Assembly (NCBI RefSeq): GCF_947169325.1
Contig: NZ_CAMVPN010000001.1
Span: 16,089-80,088, forward strand
Source: an uncultured Methanobrevibacter sp.
GTDB lineage: Archaea > Methanobacteriota > Methanobacteria > Methanobacteriales > Methanobacteriaceae
Length of the DNA: 64,000 bases
Reading direction: 5' to 3'
Part shown: piece by piece, positions 18,898 through 49,426 of the stretch
Layout: each line of letters starts with the position of its first letter
How positions within the stretch are numbered: position 1 is the stretch's first letter
The notes under the pieces: model-generated
Seen by the model: the letters and a program-made list of their open reading frames with translations, nothing else
Database searches by the model: none
What the model was told of the DNA's origin: nothing
Program-made: the position numbers and the translations under genes

Positions 18898-21210
18898 TTA
18901 CTTTTTAATTTTTGAAGTCTTTTTAATGGTGTCCTTTAAATAGGTTGCCTGATAGGTGACTTTCTTTCCTACCTTAAGCTTTTTTAAGACACTTGATTTG
19001 ATGGTTACTTTTGCAACACCTTTTTTATTGGTTTTTGCTGTGTATTTCTTGCCATTGAATTTGAAAGTGACCTTCTTTTTCTTAAGGTATTTTCCATCAA
19101 CTTTAGCCAGGCTTGCAGTCAAGACAAGCTTTTTGGCGGATTTTTTAACGGTAGCGGATTTAAGGCTCACAACATGTTTCACAGTCAGTTTTGAAACGAC
19201 TGTCTTTTCCAGTGACTTCAATGTCAATGTGTATGTTCCAGGAGTCTTTGTCACTTTAAAGCTTACAACACCCTTACTATTGGTTTTTGGTGTTTGCAAT
19301 ACTTTGTTATTAATCAGAATAACCACCTTGGCTCCAACAGCAATCACTCCCTCTTTTTCATAAACGGTAATGATGCACTGTTTGTTTGATGTATATGCCA
19401 GATTAAGGTTTTTGACAATAATCTTTGCAGGAATTATGATGATTGTAACGTTTGACTCCTTTGTAAATCCGTTGTAGTTGTCGTCACCTGAATATACGAA
19501 TGTGAATACAATATCGCCCTTAAACTCGGACAGGTCAATTGAAGCGATACCTTTCACGATTTTGGCAACTCCAACCATGTTTCCGTCAACAAAAACGGCT
19601 AAGGTACCTGTGGCGTCTGATGGGAATCTTAAGCTGACCACTCCGTCATCATCGGTTTGCATCTCTTCGTGGACTATTGTTGAGTAGTCATCAGGAGAGC
19701 TGATTTGAGGTTTGCTGTTCCCGATTAAAACGCAATCGAAGATTATTCCTCCATAGATTGCGCCTCCTCCGGCATTAGCGTTATTGTTTTTAAAAGCAGA
19801 CTCCAAAACTCTTGCATCGGCGCCACTGCCGATGTATATTGCTCCACCGTATTTTCCGGAAGTGCAGCTTTTAAAGCTGCAGTTGTCAATGCTTCCTTCG
19901 GATTTGTCTTCAAAATAGATTGCGCCTCCATTGTATTTGGCACTGCATTTTTCAAAGGTGCAGTTTACAACATGAAGCCCTGTTCCGTTTTCATATTCAT
20001 TTTCCTCTTCAAGGCCTTCAAAGAATTCGAAATCATGTGCATAATTATAGATTGCGCCTCCGTCTTCATTGCTTACGCAATTTATGAAAATGCAACCGAT
20101 GAGATTTATTTTATGGTAATCGTCAATTTCTATAGTGGGTTTGGATTTGCAATCCTTAAAGGTGCAGTTGGTCACATTTCCTCCCCTGCCCCAAAATCTG
20201 ATGGCATTATTGATGCTGCCTTCAAAAGTGCAGTTGGTAATGTTGCCTATGCAGAAGTAATTGCATCGAACCCCACTATACTTGCCGCTGAAATCACAAT
20301 TTGTGAGATTTCCAGGACCTGTAAACTCCATGTCTCCACCATAATTCTCTTTAGTGTTCACGCCACAATCAATAAAGGAACAGTCTGCAATGGTTCCTGA
20401 ACCTTCAATTGCATTGCCGTATATTAGCTCACAGCCATCTCCGCAATGGGAAAAGGAACAGTTCCTGATGAGGGTGGAGTCCATATTGATGGCTCCTCCG
20501 TATACCAGATTGGAGTTATATCCGCAATATGTGAAAGTACAGTTGATTATTCTATCATTTTCTGAGCTTATTGCACCTCCATAAACCAAATCGCAACCGT
20601 AGCAGCAGTTCTTAAAGCTGCAATTCACAACATCAGTATTTTCCACACTTAAAACGCCGCCATAAATTATGTTTTTGGTGTTATACATGCAGTTTGTAAA
20701 GCTGCAGTTTATAATCCTGCCGGAATTCAGGGATACGATGCCGTCATAGAGGCATTCTTCGCCATCGGAGTTGTAATTGGAGCAGTCATTGAAACTGCAA
20801 TTTATTACGCTGCAGCCGCTTTCTTCAAATTTGCATGCTGTAACCGGAGCATTTATGAATTTAATGTTTTTCAATGCCACATTTTCACTTGAAACGTCGA
20901 ATATTCCTGTTTTTGAATTGGCATCAATTGTATGGCCCTTGCCGTCAATGGTCATTGCCTTTGAAATTGCAATGGAGTTGGTTGATTCCGTATTCTTATA
21001 GTCCTTATCCAGCTCCAAAACACCTCCGGGGGCAGTATTTCCAATCAATGTTGATAAATCGGAAAATGAGCCTGAAGAAGCGTTTTGAGTTAAAACTTCA
21101 TCCGATACGTCACTGATAATATCGGTATCATTCAAATCACTGGCTGAAACATTTGCGATAGTGAAAGCGCAGATGATCAGGCATATAATCAAGAATTTCC
21201 TGTTTAACAT
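18898..21210 (-). CDS. adhesin-like protein: signal peptide, Cys-rich beta-helix repeats, Ig-like domains, lysine-rich C-terminal module
   Basis: The signal peptide is MLNRKFLIICLIICAFTIANVSASD. The head module is MTIDGKGHTIDANSKTGIFDVSSENVALKNIKFINA. Repeats include NCSF.NC....YGGAI and GGAIY. The C-terminus is KLTVKHVVSLKSATVKKSAKKLVLTASLAKVDGKYLKKKKVTFKFNGKKYTAKTNKKGVAKVTIK...VTYQATYLKDTIKKTSKIKK. Confidence 0.85.
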   Translation of the reverse strand: MLNRKFLIICLIICAFTIANVSASDLNDTDIISDVSDEVLTQNASSGSFSDLSTLIGNTAPGGVLELDKDYKNTESTNSIAISKAMTIDGKGHTIDANSKTGIFDVSSENVALKNIKFINAPVTACKFEESGCSVINCSFNDCSNYNSDGEECLYDGIVSLNSGRIINCSFTNCMYNTKNIIYGGVLSVENTDVVNCSFKNCCYGCDLVYGGAISSENDRIINCTFTYCGYNSNLVYGGAINMDSTLIRNCSFSHCGDGCELIYGNAIEGSGTIADCSFIDCGVNTKENYGGDMEFTGPGNLTNCDFSGKYSGVRCNYFCIGNITNCTFEGSINNAIRFWGRGGNVTNCTFKDCKSKPTIEIDDYHKINLIGCIFINCVSNEDGGAIYNYAHDFEFFEGLEEENEYENGTGLHVVNCTFEKCSAKYNGGAIYFEDKSEGSIDNCSFKSCTSGKYGGAIYIGSGADARVLESAFKNNNANAGGGAIYGGIIFDCVLIGNSKPQISSPDDYSTIVHEEMQTDDDGVVSLRFPSDATGTLAVFVDGNMVGVAKIVKGIASIDLSEFKGDIVFTFVYSGDDNYNGFTKESNVTIIIIPAKIIVKNLNLAYTSNKQCIITVYEKEGVIAVGAKVVILINNKVLQTPKTNSKGVVSFKVTKTPGTYTLTLKSLEKTVVSKLTVKHVVSLKSATVKKSAKKLVLTASLAKVDGKYLKKKKVTFKFNGKKYTAKTNKKGVAKVTIKSSVLKKLKVGKKVTYQATYLKDTIKKTSKIKK

Positions 21211-22789: not shown

Positions 22790-23063
22790 AAAATGAGAGT
22801 TCAACTCTCTCTATTTTACTTTTTTTAGACTGACATGCGTTCAGGTGAGATTGGCATCTGATATATATTGGCATTCGCCTTTTACCTCATCAATGCAAAT
22901 GCTCGCCGTTAATGTCAATGCCGTATGATAATTCTTGAGGCATCAGATGGACATGCCAATTTAATCAACCGACTTTTCAATTTAACTCATGCCTTGATTT
23001 GTCCTCTGCAATGTGAAAATTAATGTAATATGAACTCCAAAACTATTATCACAGGTGCTTTTC

Positions 23064-26000
23064 ATGGACGTTAAAGACAATTCGCAAAAAACCCAAAACT
23101 TCAGCTATCTGGATGATTTAATCCACAGCGCAAAAACTGAAATCAAACTGGATGCAGACATAAAGTTCAGCCCGGAAGATGAGGCTGAATACTCAGAAGG
23201 CATAAAAATAGACGTTGACGGCATCACAATTGATGCAGGCGGACACACAATCGATGCCGGTGCAAGGATATTCGACGTAACCGCAGAAAGCGTCACAATC
23301 AAAAACGTCCACCTCAACACACTTGAAAGCGCAGTATATGTCCATGAAAATGCAGTATTGAAACTTGAAAATGTCTACGGGGCAGGCACAATAAATGACG
23401 GAACCCTTATTCTGATTGAATCCTACGACGACCCGCAGATTATAAACAACGGTCTTTTATACGTCTCGGAGGATGAAATCCACACAGGAATTGCAAACAA
23501 CGGCGAAATCTCACGCATCAGAAAGCTTAAAAATGAGGAGTCAAACTTCACATCTCTCAAGAGGATGATTGACGATACCTACGCCAGTCTGCTTAAGGAG
23601 GACGCCATTAAGGAGGATGCACTCATAAGGTTCAAGGGTGATGTTGTTCTCGACATGGCTGGTGATGAGTGCTTCAGCTTCAGGGAAGGCTTCGTTCTTG
23701 ACCGTGGAAACATCATAATCGACGGTCAGGGATACTCGATTGACGCAAACCATTTCACAAGGCTTTTCACCATCTCGGCTTCAAATGTGACAATCAGAAA
23801 CCTCACACTTAAAAACGCAAGGGCGGATGAAGGCGGAGCCGTCAAAAACACAGGAAAGGTTAACCTGTCATCGCTTACAATTGAAGGCTGCAGCCAGACC
23901 CAAAGTGGAGCCATATTTTTCAATGAAGGAGAAATCACGGCCGAAAGGATATTCATGCTCTCAAACAGGGGCGGGATATACAACAAAAGCGGAAAGGTCA
24001 CTTTGGACTACATAAACTTCACAGACAACTCCGCTGTCAATATCATCATGAATATGGGCGAAACAATAGTCATGAACTCAAGGTTTGTCGGCAAAAACGC
24101 CATTGACAATGACAGTGTGCTTAAATTATGCAACAACAACTTCGACGATGGACACATCCTCAACAGAAAGAATTCCCTTGTAAAGCTCTACAGAAAGACT
24201 TCACAAAAGTCAGAGGAAATCCACGAATCCACAAGCCTTGAAATCACAAACAAGGGAAAGATCAAGGCATACAACTTTGAAGGAAACATCATCCCTGCAA
24301 CATCAATAACCGAAGGAGGCGAAGTGGAGCATTTCACGCAGGACATCGTCAGAAGGGATGAGTTTTTCACCTCAAACTACGAATGGATTGAAATCAAGCT
24401 CATAGTGGGCTCAACCCTCAGGGACATGTTTTCGGAGAGAAACTACTTTTCAAACCATGTGTTTTCAGAACTTCAGGACTGGTGCAAGAAAAGGAGGATA
24501 CTTCTCAGAAACATTGACCTCAAATGCGCATCAAAAAAGAGCATAGACATCATAGATTCCTATATGGATGATGACAAATCATTTTTCCTCTGCTTTATCG
24601 GCCAGAAGCAGGACTGGTATTCGAACCTTGAAAAGCAGAGCGTATCGGCAACCCTGCATCCTATGGTGAGGATTCTTCGAGACGTTTCAAACGTGAAATT
24701 CGAAAAAAGGACATTATTCCTCTTCAGGCAAAACCCATTTGACAGCGTAAATCTCACGCAGGAGCAGAAATCAATATACTTCGGCAAAGCAGAAGACAGG
24801 TCAGAGGAGATTAAACAGTCAGTAACTGATGAGCAGTTCACGGCCTTCGACTATACCTGCCAATGGAACGGCGAGGGAATAGTGGCCGAGCTGGCCTCAA
24901 AGGACGGTGTGAGCGGAAGGCTTGAGAACTTTGAGCATGATGGCAAGCCCCTCAAGGACCTGATTTTAGATGAGCTCAAAAGACAGATTGAAGCCGCATT
25001 TCCAAACCAAAAGCCATTCAGGTCAGAGGACATCTACTTTGAGGATGCGATGATTCACAATCTTGAAATTGAATTCCGCTCAAGGAGCCTCACAGGAAAG
25101 AGACAGAAACTGAGGGAACTTGACTCCAAATTCTTAAATCATAAAAACAAGATCCTTGTGATTCACGGAGGCGAAGGGGTCGGAAAAAGCACACTTCTTG
25201 CAAAATGGCATCAGACACTTAAAAAGGACGGCCACAAATCAATAATCAGATTATGCGAAGCTACCCTTAAAAGCAGCACGTTTCAGGATTTATACCTGAG
25301 CATAGGCTCTGAAGCGGGAATATTCAACGGGGAGGAGGAAAAGATACGCAGTTCCGTCTTTGAATTCGACTATGATTTCTTCAGCAAGCTGAAGGATAAG
25401 GGAGTAGAGGTTCTCATCCTGTCGAATGTGGATAAGATAGGCAAGTTCGCTCCGACAAGGGTTCCGGAAGATTTCTACATTGTGCTTTCATCAGAAGACG
25501 ATTATGACATAGGAGTTGCCCATGACAGATTGGCTTTGGACGATTTGAAGTCAAGCGAAGTTTCATACGAGTTCATAGCGCCATATCTGGGCATCAATCT
25601 GGTCGAGATGAACAGACGTCAGAAAAACACGATTGTGGGAATGCTCAAGTCAAAATCCCCTCTTTTCGCAAGGATTGTGCTCAACGAGATGGGATGCCTC
25701 GAGTCCTATGACGAGATAGTCTCGAAGATTTCAAGCTTCGGCGAGACAGTATCGGACGCATTCAAGCGCCTTATTGAAATACTTAAGGAAGACAACATCT
25801 ACGGCGAGGAGTTCATAGCAAGCGTATTGACCAGACTTGCATTTGCCGGAAACGGACTGAGCGACAGGGAACTGGTTTCAAACCCAAACCAGCAGGAGCT
25901 TCTTAAGATATTCCTCAACAGGATTGAGGATTACATCTACATGAAGGACGACAAGTACTATCTCAGGTATGAGGAGTTCAGAAATACGATAATTTCCGAA

Positions 26001-26657
26001 TACAAAGGCCTTGAGGAAGATACAAGACGTGACCTGGTGGACCTTTACAAGGCGTCAATGCTGATGTCTGAAGGGGAGCTGTATCCTTTGATTGTTGGAA
26101 GTGACGATCTGCTCCATCAGCTGCAGGAGCTTAAGGATTATAATGGCATTCTTGAAGTGTTTAAAAATGACGAGCTTTTAAGCAAGGTCGAGCCGGATGA
26201 GTATGGATTGGAGTACAAGGGAGGAACGTTTTACCCTTATTCCGCCGACAGGCTCAAGCTGAATATAGATGATGCTAATGTCTTAAGGCAGATATCATTG
26301 ATGCTTCTTGAAAAGACTGATGTGAGACTCAGGGATGCTTTAAACAGGTACAGCGAACCAAGGTATGATTTAAGCTATAAGTTCCGCCAATACGACCCTG
26401 AAGAGTTTGCAAGATACAGGGATTCCTTTTACGAAACCACCTCCTATTTCAAGGCGGCTGCAACTTATGCAAAGGAAAGTTTAAAACTCGAAAAGGACAC
26501 TTCCTTAAATGACGAGTTCAAAAAGAAGTTCAATAAAGATTCAAACTATGTAAAATCATTCCTGATGAAGACTGCCGATAGCGGAGCCGACAATCTGGGA
26601 TTGTCCCACAATATCGAAGACCTTGCACTTGACGCATTGAACGCATCAAAATTCTAG
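23064..26657 (+). CDS. STAND-type protein: N-terminal cytoplasmic adhesin-head-like beta-helix modules (x2), degenerate DUF4062-like domain, P-loop NTPase with canonical Walker A, helical C-terminal region
   Basis: There is no signal peptide (MDVKDNSQKTQNF...). Two adhesin-head-like modules are present: GIKIDVDGITIDAGGHTIDAGARIFDVTAESVTIKNVHL and GNIIIDGQGYSIDANHFTRLFTISASNVTIRNLTLKNARADEGGAVKN. The DUF4062-like segment is IKLIVGSTLRDMFSERNYFSNHVFSELQDWCKKRRILLRNIDLK...FFLCFIGQKQDWY (~24381..24640). Walker A is ILVIHGGEGVGKSTLLAKW, with the Lys codon at 25185..25187. The track start is GTG 23055 and the first ATG is at 23064. Confidence 0.75.
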   Translation: MDVKDNSQKTQNFSYLDDLIHSAKTEIKLDADIKFSPEDEAEYSEGIKIDVDGITIDAGGHTIDAGARIFDVTAESVTIKNVHLNTLESAVYVHENAVLKLENVYGAGTINDGTLILIESYDDPQIINNGLLYVSEDEIHTGIANNGEISRIRKLKNEESNFTSLKRMIDDTYASLLKEDAIKEDALIRFKGDVVLDMAGDECFSFREGFVLDRGNIIIDGQGYSIDANHFTRLFTISASNVTIRNLTLKNARADEGGAVKNTGKVNLSSLTIEGCSQTQSGAIFFNEGEITAERIFMLSNRGGIYNKSGKVTLDYINFTDNSAVNIIMNMGETIVMNSRFVGKNAIDNDSVLKLCNNNFDDGHILNRKNSLVKLYRKTSQKSEEIHESTSLEITNKGKIKAYNFEGNIIPATSITEGGEVEHFTQDIVRRDEFFTSNYEWIEIKLIVGSTLRDMFSERNYFSNHVFSELQDWCKKRRILLRNIDLKCASKKSIDIIDSYMDDDKSFFLCFIGQKQDWYSNLEKQSVSATLHPMVRILRDVSNVKFEKRTLFLFRQNPFDSVNLTQEQKSIYFGKAEDRSEEIKQSVTDEQFTAFDYTCQWNGEGIVAELASKDGVSGRLENFEHDGKPLKDLILDELKRQIEAAFPNQKPFRSEDIYFEDAMIHNLEIEFRSRSLTGKRQKLRELDSKFLNHKNKILVIHGGEGVGKSTLLAKWHQTLKKDGHKSIIRLCEATLKSSTFQDLYLSIGSEAGIFNGEEEKIRSSVFEFDYDFFSKLKDKGVEVLILSNVDKIGKFAPTRVPEDFYIVLSSEDDYDIGVAHDRLALDDLKSSEVSYEFIAPYLGINLVEMNRRQKNTIVGMLKSKSPLFARIVLNEMGCLESYDEIVSKISSFGETVSDAFKRLIEILKEDNIYGEEFIASVLTRLAFAGNGLSDRELVSNPNQQELLKIFLNRIEDYIYMKDDKYYLRYEEFRNTIISEYKGLEEDTRRDLVDLYKASMLMSEGELYPLIVGSDDLLHQLQELKDYNGILEVFKNDELLSKVEPDEYGLEYKGGTFYPYSADRLKLNIDDANVLRQISLMLLEKTDVRLRDALNRYSEPRYDLSYKFRQYDPEEFARYRDSFYETTSYFKAAATYAKESLKLEKDTSLNDEFKKKFNKDSNYVKSFLMKTADSGADNLGLSHNIEDLALDALNASKF

Positions 26658-27078
26658 GCGTAATGATGTGTATGTTTTCTGGATGTTTCAATCGACATTA
26701 ACATGGCAGAATTGGTCATGTTGAAGGCATTTCATGTCACTTCTTGAATAGAATTTTTTTCCATTAATCAAGTTTCCGGCCTGCAATTCAACATTTTCAA
26801 GAACATGTTTCATGGTTGATTTAGGAGGTGTCATGATTTTTCATCATATATGTGGGGGCCATGATTTCAGGCCATGTTTAAAAAATTCATTTTGACTTTC
26901 TTTTTCATTTTCAGGGATTCTGCCTTAGTTATAGTATGAAAATTTTTTGCGAGTAAATCGGAATTTTTCACATTTTCCCCCTTTGGAGTGATGTGGAATC
27001 TCCGTTTTCAAGTTGAAAAATAATTTTTCAAAAAAGGTTCAAATGGGCTTCGTTTTTCAAAAATAGGCCGTCAGACGT

Positions 27079-27091
27079 TTACACTTGAAAT
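27079..27091 (+). other. ORB-like 13-mer TTACACTTGAAAT (copy 1)
   Basis: The exact 13-mer recurs at 27671..27683, and in reverse orientation at 44160..44172. It resembles the archaeal mini-ORB TTCCAGTGGAAA and, from memory, the Methanothermobacter 13-bp origin repeat. Confidence 0.4.
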
Positions 27092-27670
27092 TCACCTTTA
27101 AATTTTCATTTTACTGGGGGTCGGTATTGTGAAAAATTTTGAAAATGAACTCAAAAATGAAGAAAATTTTAGTGAATTGCATTCGCAAAAATATTCAGTG
27201 GAGATTATTGGGGTACTAAATGTCGATTAATTTTCAATGGTGCATTTGCCGAGTTGGAAGTGATTTTTGATTTAAAATTCTCAAATGAGATTATAATGCT
27301 TTCAATCAGTTAAAAACACTATTTCGTTCAATATCTAGAATTGAATTATTTTCCATTAATCTCTGTTTTCAAGCTTCAACCTCGAATATCCAAAAATCTC
27401 CGATGTGGGATGTTAATGTCAAATTCCATCTGGAGGATAATTGGTGAATTTGATATTTTCAATTTATCAAATTTTTGATTTTTCAGTCTTTAATTTCAAT
27501 TTCAGGGTGTTAATGTCAGTTACTGTATGGAAAAATTTTGCCAGTAAATCCTGATTTTTCACATGTTTTCCATTTTGGGCAGTGTTAATGTGGATTTTTG
27601 AAAATTAGGAATTCGTATTGGAAATGTCATTCAAAATCGTTTAATTTAAAAAAATAGGACTCTTCGGCCT

Positions 27671-27683
27671 TTACACTTGAAAT
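27671..27683 (+). other. ORB-like 13-mer TTACACTTGAAAT (copy 2)
   Basis: This is the exact repeat of 27079..27091, 592 bp downstream, in the second tandem unit. Confidence 0.4.
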
Positions 27684-28093
27684 GTACCTTTCCGTTATTG
27701 ACATGATTTGAACTTCAAATGATTTTGGCGAAAGTAATGGTTTGGTTTGGAGCGATTATTTGAAAATTTTATTTTTCATGAGGAAATCTTTTTTTGTATT
27801 TTGGGGTTTCATCTAATTAGAGATATTATTTTTTCTTGTCTCTAAATGTTTCCTCATTCATTTTTCGCAATCTCTCGGCATGATCCTTTTGTAGATTTTT
27901 TTTTAGTTCTATAGCTTTTTTCCTTGGCATGAACAACATTGTACCGCCTTCTTAAAATTATATATTTTTTAATATTTAATTTTTTCACTATTCCTTTTTA
28001 TCCATTTAAAATTATTTGATTTTGTTATTTGTCTAACATCAGTTTCAATACTAACTGTTTCTAATTCAGAGGATATTTTTTGTTTTAATCCAG

Positions 28094-28465
28094 TTAGTTT
28101 AATAGATGTTCTGCTAAATCACAAAAAATCATATTTGACAAATATTCAATGGATTCAGATGTATAAATTAGGGTGTCTTTTTTGTATTTTTCAATAGAAT
28201 TATTAATAGATTTGCATTGGTTTGTGATTAAAGGTTTGGAAATGTATATTATTTTTTCTATGTGTTCTGATGTGAAGTTATTCTTTTTTAGTTGTTTTTC
28301 TAATTTGTTAATGAATTGTTGGTGTGATTCTTCAATGAATCCTTTAACATTTCCTTCAAAATCTTCATTAACGCCTGTTAAAAAGGAATATGCCTCTTTT
28401 TTAATTGCAAATACTTTAATGAATGGATCTTCCCAATCCACTCTTGAGTCTACTTCTTCATACAC
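28094..28465 (-). CDS. hypothetical protein
   Basis: A 123-aa AT-rich ORF with no recognisable motif. It is transcribed divergently from the surface-protein gene at 28786. Confidence 0.4.
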   Translation of the reverse strand: MYEEVDSRVDWEDPFIKVFAIKKEAYSFLTGVNEDFEGNVKGFIEESHQQFINKLEKQLKKNNFTSEHIEKIIYISKPLITNQCKSINNSIEKYKKDTLIYTSESIEYLSNMIFCDLAEHLLN

Positions 28466-36563: not shown

Positions 36564-38747
36564 ATGTACAAATCAAAACTCATTTTAGTTTTCATATTTC
36601 TGATGGCTATTTGTCTCTTGGGTCCTGTTGCGGCTTCAGACAGTGTCAATGACACTCAAATCGCCGATGACATTAAGGTTTCATACAATGAATCCGTCTA
36701 TGAAAAGGATTTGGGATCAATCGACGTTGAATTGCCCGACAACACTTCAGGCAATCTCAAGGCAACAGTCAACAATGTGGAGTTTTACAATGAAAACATA
36801 TCCTCCTCAGTCAAGGTTGCAATAACAATCCCTAAGGAGGCAATTTCATTATATGTGGCAAACAAGGACTCAGACCATGCTAATTATTTCATCAATCTCT
36901 TTTTCAATGACATTAAAATCGCCAACTACACGCTGAAGGTCATGAGGTTTGCACCGAACTACACTGTCGGAGGCTTTGCCGAAGAGATTTTAAGGGATGA
37001 CCCTGAAGGTTATGTGTCACTGTACTTTCCTGAATCAGCAAACGGCGAAATCAGAATCTACATTGACGGTGAGTATGCTTTCAATCTCACTGCCAGCCAC
37101 TACACATTCCTCAACCAGACAAGGTTCAATTCCCTGGCTTTTGGAAATCATAACGTCACCATAGTCTATATGGGGGATAGCTATTACAGGAAATTCACTA
37201 AAACTTTCAATTTTACGGTGGTGGATATCCTTATGCACGTGCCTAAAAACATAGTTTTTGAACATGACGATTGCATAAGCATAAAAACCATCAAGAATCG
37301 TGATGGTATTGTCACTGTCTATGTGGATAATCGACTGGTTTTTAAAGATAAGCTGGAGGAAAATGGCGACCTCATACACTCCCTATTCAAGGACATGACC
37401 TGCGGTGAGCATACGGTGGAAGTGAGATACGATGCAGGCAAATTCAGCAGGTCTAAAATCGTTGATGTCAATGCAAGCTACTATGTCGACATCTCCCGCT
37501 TCGGCTCATTCATATATGGGGACTACAGCCAGATTATAGCAATCGTTCCGACAGACTTCAAAAAGAGCCTGATTAACATAAGCATAGACTCCGTGCCGTA
37601 CAAGGACTTCAGCATAGATAATTCAGGATGGATTGAGATTGACGTGTCAAGATTGGATATCGGAAACCATACCTTTGATTTCAGCTTCAAGGGTGATGAG
37701 AAATACTTCCCATGGAGGGAATCCCTGAACTTCACAATCCAGTACAAGATCATCACTCCGGCAGCAATACATTTCGATTTGGAAAATGAGGTGTCACTGG
37801 TATTGCCAAAATCAGCAAAAGGAAGCCTTGAAGTGTATGTTGACGGTGAACTTTACAAAAGCGCCAAGCTTGTTGGAGGGGAGGCCAAAATAAGGATTGA
37901 TAATCTGATTCCCGGCAGGTACAATCTCACTGCAGGATACACAGGCGATGATTTTAACGTAAGCGATGAATCAGCAGTGATTGAAATTCGCCCGGAAATC
38001 CAGTGTCCGTATGAGATGTATGTCGGAGAGGACAAATACATCACCGTAACCGCCATTAAAGAGGCAAAGGGAAAGGTAATCTTCGCCATTGGCGATGAGA
38101 ACTACACTGCAGAGCTTGCAAACGGTAAGGCAAGGATGTCACTTAAAAATATCCCTGCAGGAAATTATGACGATGTATGGGCATATTATATTGGGGATAA
38201 CGGATTTAATGCTACACTCCTTACATTCATTGAGATTTTGCCGGAGAAGATAACATTGACTGCCGTTAAGGTTTCAAGCCAAAACGCCCAGATGAAGGTC
38301 CATGTCAACGGAAAGCTTGTCAAAAACGCATATGTCACACTCAAGGTTGACAAGGCCACCAAAAAGGTGAAGACCAATTCAAAAGGCATTGCAACATTGA
38401 CATTGGCGCCGGGAAAGCACACAATAACCGCCAAATACAAAACCTCAAAGTCAACAAAAACCGTCAATGTCCATGTAATCACATTAAAGTCAGTTTCAGT
38501 CAAAAAATCAGCCAAAAAGCTGGTGCTTTCAGCCAAACTCAAAAAAGGCAAGACATTGCTTAAAAACAAAAAAGTCACTTTCAAATTCAACGGCAAGACA
38601 TATAATGCCAAAACCAATAAGAAGGGCATTGCAAAAGTAACAGTAAAATCAGGGGTTTTAAAAAAGCTCAAAGTTAAAAGTAAAGTAACCTATCAGTGCA
38701 GTTACCTTAAAGACACAGTCAAAAAGACTGCTGTAGTTAAAAAATAG
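36564..38747 (+). CDS. Ig-repeat surface protein (adhesin-like), third tandem paralog
   Basis: The signal peptide is MYKSKLILVFIFLMAICLLGPVAASD. It has Ig-like repeats, and the C-terminal module is VSVKKSAKKLVLSAKLKKGKTLLKNKKVTFKFNGKTYNAKTNKKGIAKVTVK...VTYQCSYLKDTVKKTAVVKK. Confidence 0.9.
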   Translation: MYKSKLILVFIFLMAICLLGPVAASDSVNDTQIADDIKVSYNESVYEKDLGSIDVELPDNTSGNLKATVNNVEFYNENISSSVKVAITIPKEAISLYVANKDSDHANYFINLFFNDIKIANYTLKVMRFAPNYTVGGFAEEILRDDPEGYVSLYFPESANGEIRIYIDGEYAFNLTASHYTFLNQTRFNSLAFGNHNVTIVYMGDSYYRKFTKTFNFTVVDILMHVPKNIVFEHDDCISIKTIKNRDGIVTVYVDNRLVFKDKLEENGDLIHSLFKDMTCGEHTVEVRYDAGKFSRSKIVDVNASYYVDISRFGSFIYGDYSQIIAIVPTDFKKSLINISIDSVPYKDFSIDNSGWIEIDVSRLDIGNHTFDFSFKGDEKYFPWRESLNFTIQYKIITPAAIHFDLENEVSLVLPKSAKGSLEVYVDGELYKSAKLVGGEAKIRIDNLIPGRYNLTAGYTGDDFNVSDESAVIEIRPEIQCPYEMYVGEDKYITVTAIKEAKGKVIFAIGDENYTAELANGKARMSLKNIPAGNYDDVWAYYIGDNGFNATLLTFIEILPEKITLTAVKVSSQNAQMKVHVNGKLVKNAYVTLKVDKATKKVKTNSKGIATLTLAPGKHTITAKYKTSKSTKTVNVHVITLKSVSVKKSAKKLVLSAKLKKGKTLLKNKKVTFKFNGKTYNAKTNKKGIAKVTVKSGVLKKLKVKSKVTYQCSYLKDTVKKTAVVKK

Positions 38748-38972: not shown

Positions 38973-39908
38973 ATGAGCGAAAAGTACATCCGAGAAAACG
39001 TCAACTCCTGCAGTATAGTCAAGAACTCAAAAACATATGCCAAAATTGCCAATCTGGACGATGCGGTATTCATCAGGGATTTACTCATAGAAAACGACTG
39101 GAATCTTGATGAAATCCCTCAGACAGTCAAATTCAACGATAATTATCTTGTTTTAACAGTTCTTGATGGGAAAATCCATCTGATTGCCAAATACAAAAGC
39201 GAACCGTCACAGGAAACTATTAATAAACTGGTCAAAAGGCATAAAAGAAATCCGAACAACTCCAAATACGGTTTGAACATCACAAGGGTCTTCGACACCT
39301 TCGTAATCAAAAAGCAGATTGCAAGTGACGATTACATCTTCGGATATTACGATAATCTGGAGGATGCCCAGTTTGTGAGGAATTTCCTCATGGACCACTG
39401 CTGGAACGTAAACGAATTCGACATTGTCAACTTCTGCGATGAAACACAGACATATAAGGTCGTAAAGGTCATTGACGATAAGGTCTATGTCCTTGATTCG
39501 TCAAAAACAGATGATTTCGATTTGGATAATGTCTATAGCGAATTCCTCTCGAAAATATCAAAGCACAAGTTAGGGCTGGCCAGTCATCCGCACCTCGATG
39601 AGCTTAAAGGCTTGATTGGAGAGCTTGAAAGTGAACTGGGAGTAAAGGCAACTGATGATGTGTGGTCATTTTCGCACATTAACGATGAAAAGTCAGTACT
39701 TACGGATGTGATTTTCACCCTAACGCCATTCGAGCAGAGCGTTTATGATGCAATAGGTAATGAAGCCTCAATTGACGATATCAAAAAATCCCTTATCAGA
39801 TACCGCTCTAAAAACTTCGAGGATAAGATTACAAGAAACCTTGAAAGCCTGATTGACAAAGGTCTTGTTGAAAAAACAGATTCGGGATATAAAAAAACAA
39901 ATTTATAA
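38973..39908 (+). CDS. hypothetical protein with an internal duplication and a possible C-terminal winged-helix domain
   Basis: Two similar modules are present: LDDAVFIRDLLIENDWNLDEIPQ and LEDAQFVRNFLMDHCWNVNEFD. The C-terminus, SVYDAIGNEASIDDIKKSLIRYRSKNFEDKITRNLESLIDKGLVEK, resembles a wHTH. Confidence 0.5.
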   Translation: MSEKYIRENVNSCSIVKNSKTYAKIANLDDAVFIRDLLIENDWNLDEIPQTVKFNDNYLVLTVLDGKIHLIAKYKSEPSQETINKLVKRHKRNPNNSKYGLNITRVFDTFVIKKQIASDDYIFGYYDNLEDAQFVRNFLMDHCWNVNEFDIVNFCDETQTYKVVKVIDDKVYVLDSSKTDDFDLDNVYSEFLSKISKHKLGLASHPHLDELKGLIGELESELGVKATDDVWSFSHINDEKSVLTDVIFTLTPFEQSVYDAIGNEASIDDIKKSLIRYRSKNFEDKITRNLESLIDKGLVEKTDSGYKKTNL

Positions 39909-44011: not shown

Positions 44012-44053
44012 TAACATTCCTTAAGTATTACTTTTCTTACTTATAAGACATAC

Positions 44054-44172
44054 TTTTCAAGTGTAACTTTTCCCTTATAAGATATACTTCAACTGTAAAG
44101 ACATATGTTTCAAGTGTAACTTTTCACTTATAACTTGTAACTTTTACCATAAGAGGTGCATTTCAAGTGTAA
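44054..44172 (-). repeat. three ORB-like elements (TTACACTTGAAA on the minus strand) at exact 53-bp spacing
   Basis: The elements are tTTTCAAGTGTAA at 44054..44066, gTTTCAAGTGTAA at 44107..44119 and aTTTCAAGTGTAA at 44160..44172. The conserved flanks are aagacata..tttcaagtgtaactt.tc. They are followed by TTATAACTT at 44128, 44181 (53 bp apart), 44213, 44259 and 44293. Confidence 0.5.
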
Positions 44173-44340
44173 CTTCTCAGTTATAACTTATCCTATGTAA
44201 AAAATATATTCCTTATAACTTATCATGAAAATTTTCCGCAATGCAAAAAATATATTACTTATAACTTATTACAAAAATCGCTTTCTTAGAAATTATAACT
44301 TATAACTAAAATTTCAACAAAAAAAGAAAAGTTGACAGAA

Positions 44341-48316: not shown

Positions 48317-49426
48317 ATGGGAATTGAAGATATTTTGATGTATGATGAAAGCCTTTTTAATAACATAAACGCTTTTGACCCGGATTATATGCCTCCGAAC
48401 TACAATTTCAGGGACACTCAAATGGAAGGCATGGCAATGGCAATAAGGCCTGCCATGAGAGGAGGCCAGCCGTCAAATGCAATCATATTGGGCTCACCGG
48501 CAACAGGCAAAACAACAGCCATTAAGAAAGTCTTTGAAATGGTTGAAAAGACTACAGAAAAAGTCATATGTGTTTATGTCAACTGCCAGATTCATACAAC
48601 CCGTTTCGGAATATTTTCACAGGTCTATAAAAAGGTATTCGGATACCTTCCCCCTGAAACCGGAATTCCGTTTTCAAAAATATATGCCGAAATCATGAAA
48701 AATCTTCAAAAAAATGAAAAGTCCCTGATTGTAGCATTCGACGACATCAATTATCTTTTCCAATCAAAAAACGCAAACAAGGTAGTGTACGATTTGCTCA
48801 GGGCTTATGAGGAATATCCTGGAGTCAGAACATCTATTTTTGCAATCCTCTCTGATTTGGAGTTCAAGTATGCCTTTGACAAGAACGTCAATACCGTGTT
48901 CATTCCTCAGGAAATCATGTTTCCGCTTTACAAATACTCCGAAATCGAGGACATCCTAAGGGACAGGGCAAAGGCAGGATTTTTCCCAGGAGTGCTGAGT
49001 GATGACATTCTGGAGCAGATTGCCATGTATACGCTGGAAAATGGTGATTTGAGAGTTGGAATCAATCTTCTGAAATCATGCGGCAATATTGCGGAAGCTT
49101 CAGCAAGCCGTGAAATAACTCAGGAGCACTTCGACAAGGCCATAGACTCATTGGTTTCCATCAACGTTTCCGAAACATTGAAATCTCTCAACGACGTTGA
49201 AAAAGAGCTTTTGAAAATGATTGTTGACTATGATGGCATATATACGGCAGGAGATCTTTCAGAGGAATACAAACAAAAGACAGGCTCCAGTTATGCGTCA
49301 TTCAACAGGACCCTGGAAAAACTTGAATTCGTAAGATTAATCGATACCAAATTTACAGGAAAAGGATCAAGGGGTCAATCCAGGCAAATCATATTGCGCT
49401 TCAACCCCGAAGATTATCAAATCTGA
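48317..49426 (+). CDS. cdc6: Orc1/Cdc6 replication initiator
   Basis: The Orc1/Cdc6 N-terminal motif is PDYMPPNYNFRDTQMEGMAMAI. Walker A is ILGSPATGKTT and Walker B is LIVAFDDINYL. The C-terminal winged helix includes LKMIVDYDGIYTAGDLSEEYK...FNRTLEKLEFVRLI. Confidence 0.9.
   Translation: MGIEDILMYDESLFNNINAFDPDYMPPNYNFRDTQMEGMAMAIRPAMRGGQPSNAIILGSPATGKTTAIKKVFEMVEKTTEKVICVYVNCQIHTTRFGIFSQVYKKVFGYLPPETGIPFSKIYAEIMKNLQKNEKSLIVAFDDINYLFQSKNANKVVYDLLRAYEEYPGVRTSIFAILSDLEFKYAFDKNVNTVFIPQEIMFPLYKYSEIEDILRDRAKAGFFPGVLSDDILEQIAMYTLENGDLRVGINLLKSCGNIAEASASREITQEHFDKAIDSLVSINVSETLKSLNDVEKELLKMIVDYDGIYTAGDLSEEYKQKTGSSYASFNRTLEKLEFVRLIDTKFTGKGSRGQSRQIILRFNPEDYQI

Follow-up and report, generated by a model that had tools for sequence, protein, structure and literature searches.

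A genus-specific tandem DNA module in Methanobrevibacter as a candidate Orc1/Cdc6 binding platform away from the replication origin

The longest gene-free stretch of the window, that is, of the whole 64,000-nucleotide segment of an uncultured rumen Methanobrevibacter sp. genome analysed here, runs from 26658 to 28093 and comprises 1436 nt without an open reading frame (ORF) of at least 60 aa on either strand; the second-longest ORF-free stretch measures 407 nt. A previous sequence-only reading had described this lack of ORFs for 26658-27825, which is correct, although the true extent is larger. Direct repeats with a period of 591/592 bp lie within the region, and sensitive BLASTN aligns two copies, A and B (Table 1), over 386 columns, of which 62.7% are identical (E 7e-20); the two-copy unit of ~592 bp that had been proposed is upheld, while the identity of about 70% judged by eye has to be lowered to this value. 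Each unit of the tandem pair terminates in the exact 13-mer TTACACTTGAAAT, at the two plus-strand positions where it had been reported. At 29-35% GC and with phased T-tracts, the region is comparable to other intergenic DNA, the genome having 36.7% GC.

The 13-mer occurs in 12 exact copies in this 2.61-Mb genome, against 0.33 expected, and all but two of these sites (10/12) fall outside ORFs of at least 80 aa. Its identity as an origin recognition box (ORB) was set empirically, from the distribution of arrays in complete genomes. Complete genomes from other genera of the order and class carry it in dense inverted arrays, confined to a single locus per genome; among related genomes, such single-locus arrays are present in G037, G033, G026, G028, G014, G018 and G044. 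In the main arrays of this and other genomes, the minus-strand copies come first and are followed by the plus-strand copies. On contig C6 of the present genome, one such array directly adjoins an orc1/cdc6 gene, which lies at C6:18647-19819 and is Cdc6-1-like. The match also reaches past the 13-mer (TTACACTTGAAATnCACCTnT), as it does in origin-type arrays: the 13-mer with a CACCTnT extension is common to the module ORBs and to the arrays at window position 44160 and at C6:20099-20434, and the CACCTCT extension is likewise seen in origin arrays. The earlier suggestion of an archaeal ORB is borne out by the inverted arrays and by the array beside orc1/cdc6, and the 13-mer is, on its distribution, the ORB of the whole order. 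This agrees with the probable match to the 13-bp Cdc6-1-binding repeat of the Methanothermobacter origin to which that reading had pointed. A full-text literature search with the motif letters returned unrelated papers only. As far as relayed in PMC4010727, oriC of the Methanobacteriales is Orc1/Cdc6-dependent and consists of 13-bp repeat arrays adjoining cdc6-1 (Capaldi & Berger 2004, Majernik & Chong 2008).

The ORB is one part of a longer unit. Only three full copies of this module exist in the genome, namely A, B and C55:10554-10923, and 56 copies were recovered among relatives within the genus. A strict module pattern was found in ~32 of 71 genomes of the genus versus one match, probably spurious, among 144 genomes that represent 24 further genera of the family; by this survey, it is a previously undescribed noncoding module of ~370 bp found only in this genus. 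Since ungapped copy-to-copy identity is misleading because of 1-nt register shifts, a tree was used to date the duplication. In this tree, copy A groups as sister with the upstream member of the tandem pair of another species, G068 (SH-aLRT 96), and the pairs of three further species also cluster according to position; going by this topology, the tandem duplication is older than speciation and both copies have been retained, apparently under selection. Across dozens of species, modules occupy two syntenic positions. Class I is flanked by an EamA-like gene on one side and a gene for a 630-aa glycosyltransferase (GT) on the other, and class II heads clusters of Big_3_5 adhesin-like and 311-aa genes. 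In genomes that lack the pattern, the module is missing at the GT locus in 10 of 10 cases and the EamA-like gene is missing in most as well, so that, judged from presence and absence, the class I module and the EamA-like gene behave as an indel cassette of ~1.35 kb and the module appears dispensable at the scale of the genus. No DNA-binding gene was found to be linked to the modules. In the named genome collection, a TPP-enzyme probe gave matches and a probe with the 311-aa protein gave none.

The architecture of the module is a T-rich block 1 followed, after 209-212 bp, by a palindromic TTACT-N17/18-AGTAA (block 3) and then, beyond a spacer, by the full ORB. The distance from block 1 to AGTAA is 209-212 nt in every module that has block 1, and the distance from palindrome to ORB is 127-129, 137-139, 149 or 159 bp. 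Block 3 is the best-conserved block other than the ORB, reading TTAcTGTAtg.aaAtt.ttT.CgAGTAA.TC.a.ATTTTt.aCA..TTT in a stack of 54 sequences, and the block 3 segment of copy B alone matched several other genomes of the genus. These blocks and spacings are conserved while the sequence between them has diverged to ~50-60% identity. Measured from AGTAAVTC to the ORB, with any value from 133 to 163 permitted, the spans of the 56 pattern matches fall at 140-142 (35 matches), 150-152 (17) and 162 (4), a reversed control pattern giving zero matches; spacings of 129 and 139 are both present inside the orthologous class I clade, and shared descent could be part of the cause of constant spacing inside clades. 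TT dinucleotides recur with a period of 9.75 bp at a mean power of 0.91 versus 0.22 in intergenic controls from the same genome, 0 of 2000 resamplings exceeding 0.38, and because the modules are homologous, these periodicity and spacing statistics rest on only ~4-5 independent length-change events. The quantised spacing together with T-tracts phased at ~9.75 bp points to a constraint on the DNA itself.

Table 1 Features of the duplicated region and of the ORB array and Orc1/Cdc6 gene elsewhere in the window
Feature	Position	Strand	Basis and remarks
Copy A (module A)	26729..27099	+	BLASTN vs copy B; HMM match 26742-27100, nhmmer 219 bits
Copy B (module B)	27321..27691	+	BLASTN vs copy A; HMM match 27334-27692, nhmmer 227 bits
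Block 1 of copy A, T-rich, TCTTGAATAGAATTTTTTTCC	26742..26762	+	Alignment/stack conservation; 210 nt 5' of AGTAA
Block 1 of copy B, TCTAGAATTGAATTATTTTCC	27334..27354	+	Alignment/stack conservation; 209 nt 5' of AGTAA
Block 3 of copy A, TTATAG-N17-CGAGTAAATC then phased T-tracts (ATTTTTCACATTTTCC)	26929..26985	+	Direct repeat D1
Block 3 of copy B, TTACTG-N16-CAGTAAATC then phased T-tracts	27520..27576	+	Direct repeat; stack
Full ORB of copy A, TTACACTTGAAATtCACCTTT	27079..27099	+	Exact 13-mer 27079-27091; extended match to origin-array ORBs; 127 nt past AGTAA
Full ORB of copy B, TTACACTTGAAATgtACCTTT	27671..27691	+	Exact 13-mer 27671-27683; extended match to origin-array ORBs; 128 nt past AGTAA
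9-mer GACATTAAC	26694..26702	-	Separate dispersed motif family, with GTTAATGTC at 27412-27420 and 27509-27517
Four-ORB array (44054, 44086, 44107, 44160), 53 bp apart, TTATAAC iterons	44012..44340	-	4 kb from orc1/cdc6 paralogue
Orc1/Cdc6 paralogue, cdc6-2-like	48317..49426	+	Pfam Cdc6_lid; NCBIfam NF001624, 541 bits

Several other motifs that had been pointed out in the region are present there and yet do not belong to the module. The TTCAA/TTGAA palindromes exist (TTTTCAAgTTGAAAA at 27004-27018 and ATTTGAAcTTCAAAT at 27706-27720), but as they lie at non-equivalent positions of the two copies and are unconserved in the 54-sequence stack, they are probably incidental. AAAAATAGG, 5' of the 13-mer, recurs in both A and B, but the stack shows no conservation of it in the family as a whole. 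The copies of GTTAATGTC are part of a separate dispersed family, which numbers 278 genomic copies where 32 would be expected and occurs in only 3 of the 56 modules; by these counts, the 9-mers are a distinct, species-specific dispersed motif that overlies the region.

A conserved noncoding sequence of fixed length, with a short inverted repeat and then a T-run inside block 3, might be taken for a noncoding RNA gene or for the source of a long structured leader, and an RNA locus had indeed been suggested. We consider this very improbable. RNAalifold returned an open chain with an energy of 0.00 and no consensus structure on both strands of three segments (49-51 sequences), Rfam gave no match at the gathering threshold and none when the cut-off was relaxed to E<=1, no tRNA or tmRNA was found, and a search for a positionally conserved TATA-like box yielded none, with no 5-nt bin common to more than 10 of 54 sequences. 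Compensatory changes are absent from the 5-bp stem, and length steps of ~10.5 nt with T-tracts at the DNA helical repeat are a signature of DNA rather than of RNA. Nor did the alternative of a degraded gene gain support from six-frame tblastn, which within this genome gave only the C55 paralogue (E 0.89). A 48-aa minus-strand ORF in copy A is broken by stops in copy B. An ATG...TAA micro-ORF of 5-6 codons in block 3 was judged a by-product of the palindrome because the position of its stop moves between copies.

The decayed gene is one form of a wider explanation, in which the region would be non-functional DNA, whether a former gene, the vestige of an origin from a plasmid or an integrated element, or a MITE-like selfish repeat duplicated by chance. 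The joint gain and loss of the class I module and the EamA-like gene as a cassette would fit this explanation, as would the location of class II copies in a variable adhesin island and the dispersed 9-mer family that overlays the region. However, a selfish repeat is difficult to reconcile with just three copies in the genome and two syntenic positions in dozens of species, and no terminal inverted repeats were found among the repeats in the region. The preservation of three blocks and their spacings amid diverged sequence and the retention of duplicate copies through speciation also argue against drifting DNA, while a gene origin is contradicted by zero translated similarity elsewhere in the genome and by spacing that varies by +/-1 nt, as a reading frame would not allow. 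We give this explanation very little credence.

The sequence-only reading had put forward the region as a candidate chromosomal or element origin, and here the evidence points the other way. There is one ORB per unit and no inverted partner; the two ORBs are direct, both on the plus strand and 592 bp apart, and no further ORB match with up to two mismatches occurs within 26658-28093. The genome encodes two diverged Orc1/Cdc6 paralogues, 27% identical by BLASTP, of which one abuts the C6 main array and the other, whose gene is the nearest to the region, starts 20.6 kb off at 48317. The contigs of this assembly are too short for skew analysis, the control array on the 56-kb contig C6 itself showing no inflection, and a 729-kb contig of the syntenic relative G014 was used instead. 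Its cumulative GC skew has a single minimum, at 390-402 kb, which is the position of the main array, and neither GC skew nor gene strand shows an inflection at the module at 598 kb; lack of a skew inflection was an outcome that the earlier reading had named as refuting an origin role. Within the window, GC skew is positive throughout, and the modules sit at conserved chromosomal positions and not within a mobile element. Taken at the level of sequence, the module is not a regularly used replication origin. Within the window, the ORB array at 44012-44340 is more origin-like than the duplicated region, and arrays of this kind, with 2-6 co-oriented ORBs at 53-54 bp, are kept at ~50 syntenic Methanobrevibacter loci. 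A caution for origin prediction follows, in that a lone ORB match, even an exact one, is no mark of an origin.

A rival reading is a secondary, dormant or conditional origin. ORB-bound Orc1/Cdc6 would load MCM, the T-tract region would unwind, and the tandem pair would provide two boxes. The module does contain an authentic full ORB, identical to origin boxes, its DNA is AT-rich and predicted to be bent, several species keep tandem copies, a conserved ORB array and an orc1/cdc6 paralogue are found 5-17 kb from the class II copies, and archaea with multiple origins are known (PMC4010727). Even so, we find it improbable, because a direct pair with one ORB per unit departs from every main array seen, all of which run from minus to plus, and the polarity of the module ORB is opposite to, and converges with, that of the nearby array. 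The skew of G014, sharply inflected at the main array, is flat in this respect at the module, and the class I copy is confined to a 450-bp intergenic gap between two genes. Moreover, a single origin has been reported for M. thermautotrophicus, and oriC of M. ruminantium adjoins cdc6-1 (PMC4010727, PMC2812497).

The position of the modules beside cell-surface genes raises the question of an ordinary cis-regulatory region, in which the blocks would be operator or enhancer sites for the glycosyltransferase or adhesin-like genes and the 13-mer would be bound by another factor, or by Orc1/Cdc6 acting as a transcription factor in the manner of Sulfolobales Orc1-2. In class I, exactly 81 nt separate block 1 from the start codon of the GT gene, and in class II the ORB lies ~45-250 nt 5' of co-directional genes; a promoter-containing region is always found on one or the other side of the module. 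Helical phasing is typical for looping repressors and activators, and a Saccharolobus Orc1/Cdc6 paralogue is a global transcription regulator (PMC6061795). Yet the end that faces the gene depends on the class, being block 1 in class I and the ORB in class II, and the class I ORB sits right next to the 3' end of a convergently oriented gene. The window copies have no gene start within 1 kb downstream, and a stop codon precedes copy A. Three blocks over 370 bp are large for an archaeal promoter, and the long retention of entire 590-bp tandem units would be unusual for an operator region. A purely cis-regulatory role has some appeal but is, in our judgement, unlikely.

On balance, we favour the view that two tandem copies of a genus-specific ~370-bp DNA module, duplicated long ago, make up the region, and that the module serves as an accessory, non-origin binding platform for Orc1/Cdc6. 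As one ORB is joined to two conserved blocks at helically phased distances, the initiator probably acts here away from the origin. In the mechanism that we envisage, Orc1/Cdc6 would bind the module ORB, and a second dimeric factor and/or archaeal histones would occupy the palindrome and phased tracts on a common face of the helix. The stretch between ORB and block 3, with T-tracts at ~9.75-10 bp and length changes in steps of about one helical turn, is predicted to be intrinsically curved, and wrapping or looping of the DNA may then give a defined nucleoprotein complex. The likeliest output of such a complex would be control of initiator availability or activity, or else local regulation or insulation of the neighbouring cell-surface genes.

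Methanobrevibacter is the main methane producer of the rumen. To our knowledge, archaeal Orc1/Cdc6 proteins have mostly been studied at origins, with the damage regulon of the Sulfolobales as the main described case of a role elsewhere. The module offers a sharply defined, conserved and tractable candidate for a non-origin Orc1/Cdc6 target in this genus, and the natural spacing variants of 128, 139, 149 and 159 bp, in single and tandem versions and with cultivable module-bearing strains in the M. thaueri/M. millerae group, are ready test substrates with which to address either regulation and titration of the initiator by chromosomal sites or its moonlighting as an architectural or transcription factor.

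With oriC of the Methanobacteriales, the module has its recognition element in common, namely the exact 13-mer with the CACCTCT extension. However, oriC arrays hold 5-12 boxes in inverted halves around an unwinding element, whereas the module has one box and no inverted halves; oriC is adjacent to orc1/cdc6, while the module is not and lacks a skew inflection; and the conserved blocks 1 and 3 are both absent from origin arrays. A second point of comparison is Sulfolobales Orc1-2, an Orc1/Cdc6 paralogue that regulates transcription globally through promoter motifs (PMC6061795, PMC9738581). A protein of this family at non-origin sites, here predicted, and the presence of two diverged paralogues are shared. 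The Orc1-2 motif, though, is short, promoter-proximal and distinct from the ORB, in contrast to a full origin-type ORB within a phased 370-bp unit that is not consistently promoter-proximal.

A parallel in function comes from E. coli, in which datA, DARS1 and DARS2 are non-origin chromosomal loci that tune the activity of the initiator DnaA, which they bind along with the DNA-bending protein IHF (PMC5742627, PMC4585315, PMC5010248). As with these loci, the module is noncoding, lies at a conserved position away from the origin, and pairs its initiator box with a second site at a fixed distance via DNA that is predicted to be bent, the datA/DARS loci carrying one or more such boxes. The sequence features that would mark a datA/DARS-type locus are found here, namely a non-origin initiator box, a second site, quantised spacing and TT periodicity above background. 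The analogy is functional only, since datA and DARS belong to another initiator family and another domain of life and the module has a single initiator box. We know of no datA/DARS-like locus in archaea. As a speculative extension, doubtful as it stands, the module could be an archaeal counterpart of datA/DARS, in which Orc1/Cdc6 and a partner on curved DNA would titrate or switch the initiator and so time initiation. Were this so, tandem copies would raise the capacity of the locus, and the same system would include the single ORBs that are concentrated and co-oriented in the origin-proximal chromosome region.

The longest stretch of the window without an ORF of at least 60 aa runs from 26658 to 28093 (1436 nt, the next longest being 407 nt) and contains two repeated units with a period of 591-592 bp, each closed on the + strand by the exact 13-mer TTACACTTGAAAT (at 27079 and 27671). 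A sequence-only reading had described a gene-free duplication with exact 13-mers here, and the ORF scan, repeat spacing, BLASTN and motif search bear this out, although the gene-free stretch is longer than claimed and the identity of the copies, put at about 70% by eye, is a little lower by sensitive BLASTN (62.7% over 386 columns, E 7e-20). The pair, copies A and B of a noncoding module of about 370 bp, lies 3' of the stop codon of a 1200-aa gene (23055-26657), which has an N-terminal pectate-lyase-like adhesive domain match, a weak AAA_22 match and no NCBIfam match. It is followed by a small minus-strand gene and then, 1.1 kb beyond, by a 1432-aa adhesin-like gene. Contigs C40 (39% identity) and C16 (32%) of the same assembly carry paralogues of this 123-aa ORF, which matches nothing in Pfam; it is probably a genuine gene and runs convergently with the module.

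Features of the tandem pair, its relatives and the Orc1/Cdc6-associated arrays (C6 and C55, other contigs of the assembly; consensus sequences from the ungapped stack)
Feature	Position	Strand	Details
Copy A	26729-27099		compared by BLASTN with copy B
Copy B	27321-27691		compared by BLASTN with copy A
Third full module	C55:10554-10923
EamA-like gene of class I cassette	C55:10943-11845		beside C55 module
123-aa ORF	28094-28465	-	between copy B and 1432-aa adhesin-like gene
ORB array, 3-4 co-oriented boxes	44012-44340 (four 13-mer copies at 44054-44172)	-	exactly 53 bp apart; TTATAAC iterons
Denser ORB array, at least 5 ORBs	C6:19820-20446	both	inverted pair at 20363-20385
Orc1/Cdc6 gene, 390 aa	C6:18647-19819		directly abuts C6 array; TIGR02928, 402 bits
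Block 1 consensus			TCTAGAAnnAAATTTTTTTCC
Block 3 consensus			TTAcTGTAtg.aaAtt.ttT.CgAGTAA.TC.a.ATTTTt.aCA..TTT
Full ORB consensus of modules			gcatTTACAcTTGAAATgcACCTCTc

The 2.61-Mb assembly (36.7% GC) contains 12 exact copies of the 13-mer where 0.33 would be expected; ten of these sites fall outside every ORF of at least 80 aa, and the shared sequence is longer, reaching TTACACTTGAAATgCACCTCTc. Complete genomes from other genera of the order and class carry one dense array of 8-12 copies, '-' then '+'. On a 729-kb contig of the congener G014, cumulative GC skew traces a V with only one minimum; the main array (402092-402424) sits at that minimum, and the bias in gene strand reverses at the same point. 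A single origin has been published for M. thermautotrophicus and, for M. ruminantium, an oriC directly upstream of cdc6-1, a second gene, cdc6-2, being located elsewhere (PMC4010727, PMC2812497); the placement of arrays next to cdc6 and the single skew minimum match these statements. The arrays beside orc1/cdc6 and the G014 minimum thus uphold the earlier ORB-like reading: the 13-mer is an origin recognition box (ORB), the predicted Orc1/Cdc6 site, on the basis of computed results and general knowledge rather than a published binding sequence.

The same reading had offered the pair itself as a candidate origin. This is not supported: each unit carries a single ORB, the two are in direct orientation and no orc1/cdc6 is adjacent. 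At the syntenic module of G014 (598 kb) there is no inflection of GC skew or strand bias, as read on the 729-kb contig, the contigs of our fragmented assembly being too short for skew analysis. GC skew is positive throughout the window, and the ORB of the module and the boxes of the nearby array point towards each other, an arrangement opposite to that in every main array. The probable chromosomal oriC is instead the dense array on C6, whose Orc1/Cdc6 is 27% identical to the paralogue in the window. The window's own array lies between convergent genes, 4 kb from that paralogue, and its type, with 2-6 ORBs on one strand at intervals of 53-54 bp, is conserved at some 50 syntenic loci of Methanobrevibacter. 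Since its G014 counterpart (603 kb) shows no skew or strand-bias inflection, it may also be a non-origin initiator site. Single exact ORBs crowd the origin-proximal part of the chromosome in G014 and in a second relative, G044, where all 14 copies on a 2.27-Mb contig fall within 16-625 kb; those on the right replichore all read '+', as do the boxes in the right half of the main array (orientation is mixed in a further genome, G018), many sites being probably orthologous and the independent observations few.

Searched with an HMM of the unit, the genome yields just three full copies, and the module recurs in ruminant-gut Methanobrevibacter, including M. thaueri MAGs. The pattern AGTAAVTC-N(112-142)-TTACASTTGAAAT gave 56 matches in 44 of 103 genus genomes and none in its reversed control; a family-wide search matched about 32 of 71 genomes from the genus, plus a probably spurious one among 144 from 24 other genera. 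A selfish repeat was rejected, the three genome copies occupying syntenic positions. Ungapped stacking of 56 modules, assembled using fetched loci, reveals three conserved blocks with poorly conserved DNA between. Block 3 encloses a micro-ORF of 5-6 codons (ATG...TAA/TAG; 26936-26956 and 27527-27547) that recurs in most modules (MKIFCE*, MEKFCQ*, MEIHT* and others), probably as a by-product of the palindrome because its stop shifts between copies. The 9-mer GTTAATGTC/GACATTAAC (26694, 27412 and 27509) has 278 genomic occurrences, where 32 are expected and its reversed control gives 69. Since only 3 of 56 modules contain it, it is a distinct dispersed motif, specific to the species, that overlies the pair.

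Wherever block 1 is present it lies 209-212 nt from AGTAA, and the distance from AGTAA to the ORB is 127-129 nt (32 modules), 137-139 (16), 149 (3) or 159 (3). An unbiased gapped search permitting spans of 133-163 returned only 140-142 (35), 150-152 (17) and 162 (4). As the orthologous class I clade holds distances of both 129 and 139, length changes only by steps of about one helical turn, though no more than some 4-5 independent changes underlie the pattern, the modules being related by descent. T-tracts 3' of block 3 recur every 9.75 bp (mean spectral power 0.91 versus 0.22 in 736 intergenic control segments from this genome); control means stay at or below 0.38 in every resampling, and 56% of modules lie above the control 95th percentile. 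Both the spacing and the curvature suggest that the DNA itself is under constraint. These DNA-helical features count against an RNA gene, which had been suggested for this noncoding locus; RNAalifold predicts an open chain on both strands, Rfam gives no match at the gathering threshold or at E<=1, and the modules contain no conserved TATA-like box. The possibility of a degraded gene, also raised earlier, fails on the lack of translated similarity, stops in all frames and spacing that varies by +/-1 nt.

Modules occupy two kinds of position. The class I modules, at 27 loci, are flanked by a divergent gene for a 630-aa glycosyltransferase, whose start is exactly 81 nt from block 1, and by a convergent EamA-like gene, whose stop codon is followed after 2-17 nt by the ORB. 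Class II modules, the window's type, precede genes in the same orientation whose products, of about 541, 712-758 or 308-312 aa, are Big_3_5 Ig-like, adhesin-like proteins and a conserved protein of unknown function; the latter two size families are orthologues of 36564-38747 and 38973-39908. The module can be absent: none is found at the glycosyltransferase locus in ten genus genomes without the gapped pattern, eight of which have this gene directly after a ~360-aa gene, while one (G060) keeps the EamA-like gene with a 646-nt intergenic region lacking a recognisable module. The EamA-like gene and class I module are present or absent together across species (C55 and relatives' loci L129-L138) as a ~1.35-kb indel between the ~360-aa and glycosyltransferase genes. 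A maximum-likelihood tree shows the tandem duplication to be old. All class I modules fall into a single clade (SH-aLRT 98). The sister of copy A is not copy B but the upstream member of the tandem pair in the relative G068 (SH-aLRT 96), and the pairs of three others (G067, G093 and G105) group by position. Both copies have thus survived speciation without losing the ORB, block 3 or the spacing.

We tentatively propose that Orc1/Cdc6 binds the single full ORB of the module, and that the curved DNA would gather block 1 and a palindrome-bound partner, a putative factor and/or histones, into one wrapped or looped complex. The output would most likely be one of two kinds: control of the initiator, for which E. 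coli datA/DARS offers an analogue (PMC5742627, PMC4585315), or an effect on the surface-protein genes nearby, which it would regulate or insulate, analogous to the action of Orc1-2 as a regulator (PMC6061795).
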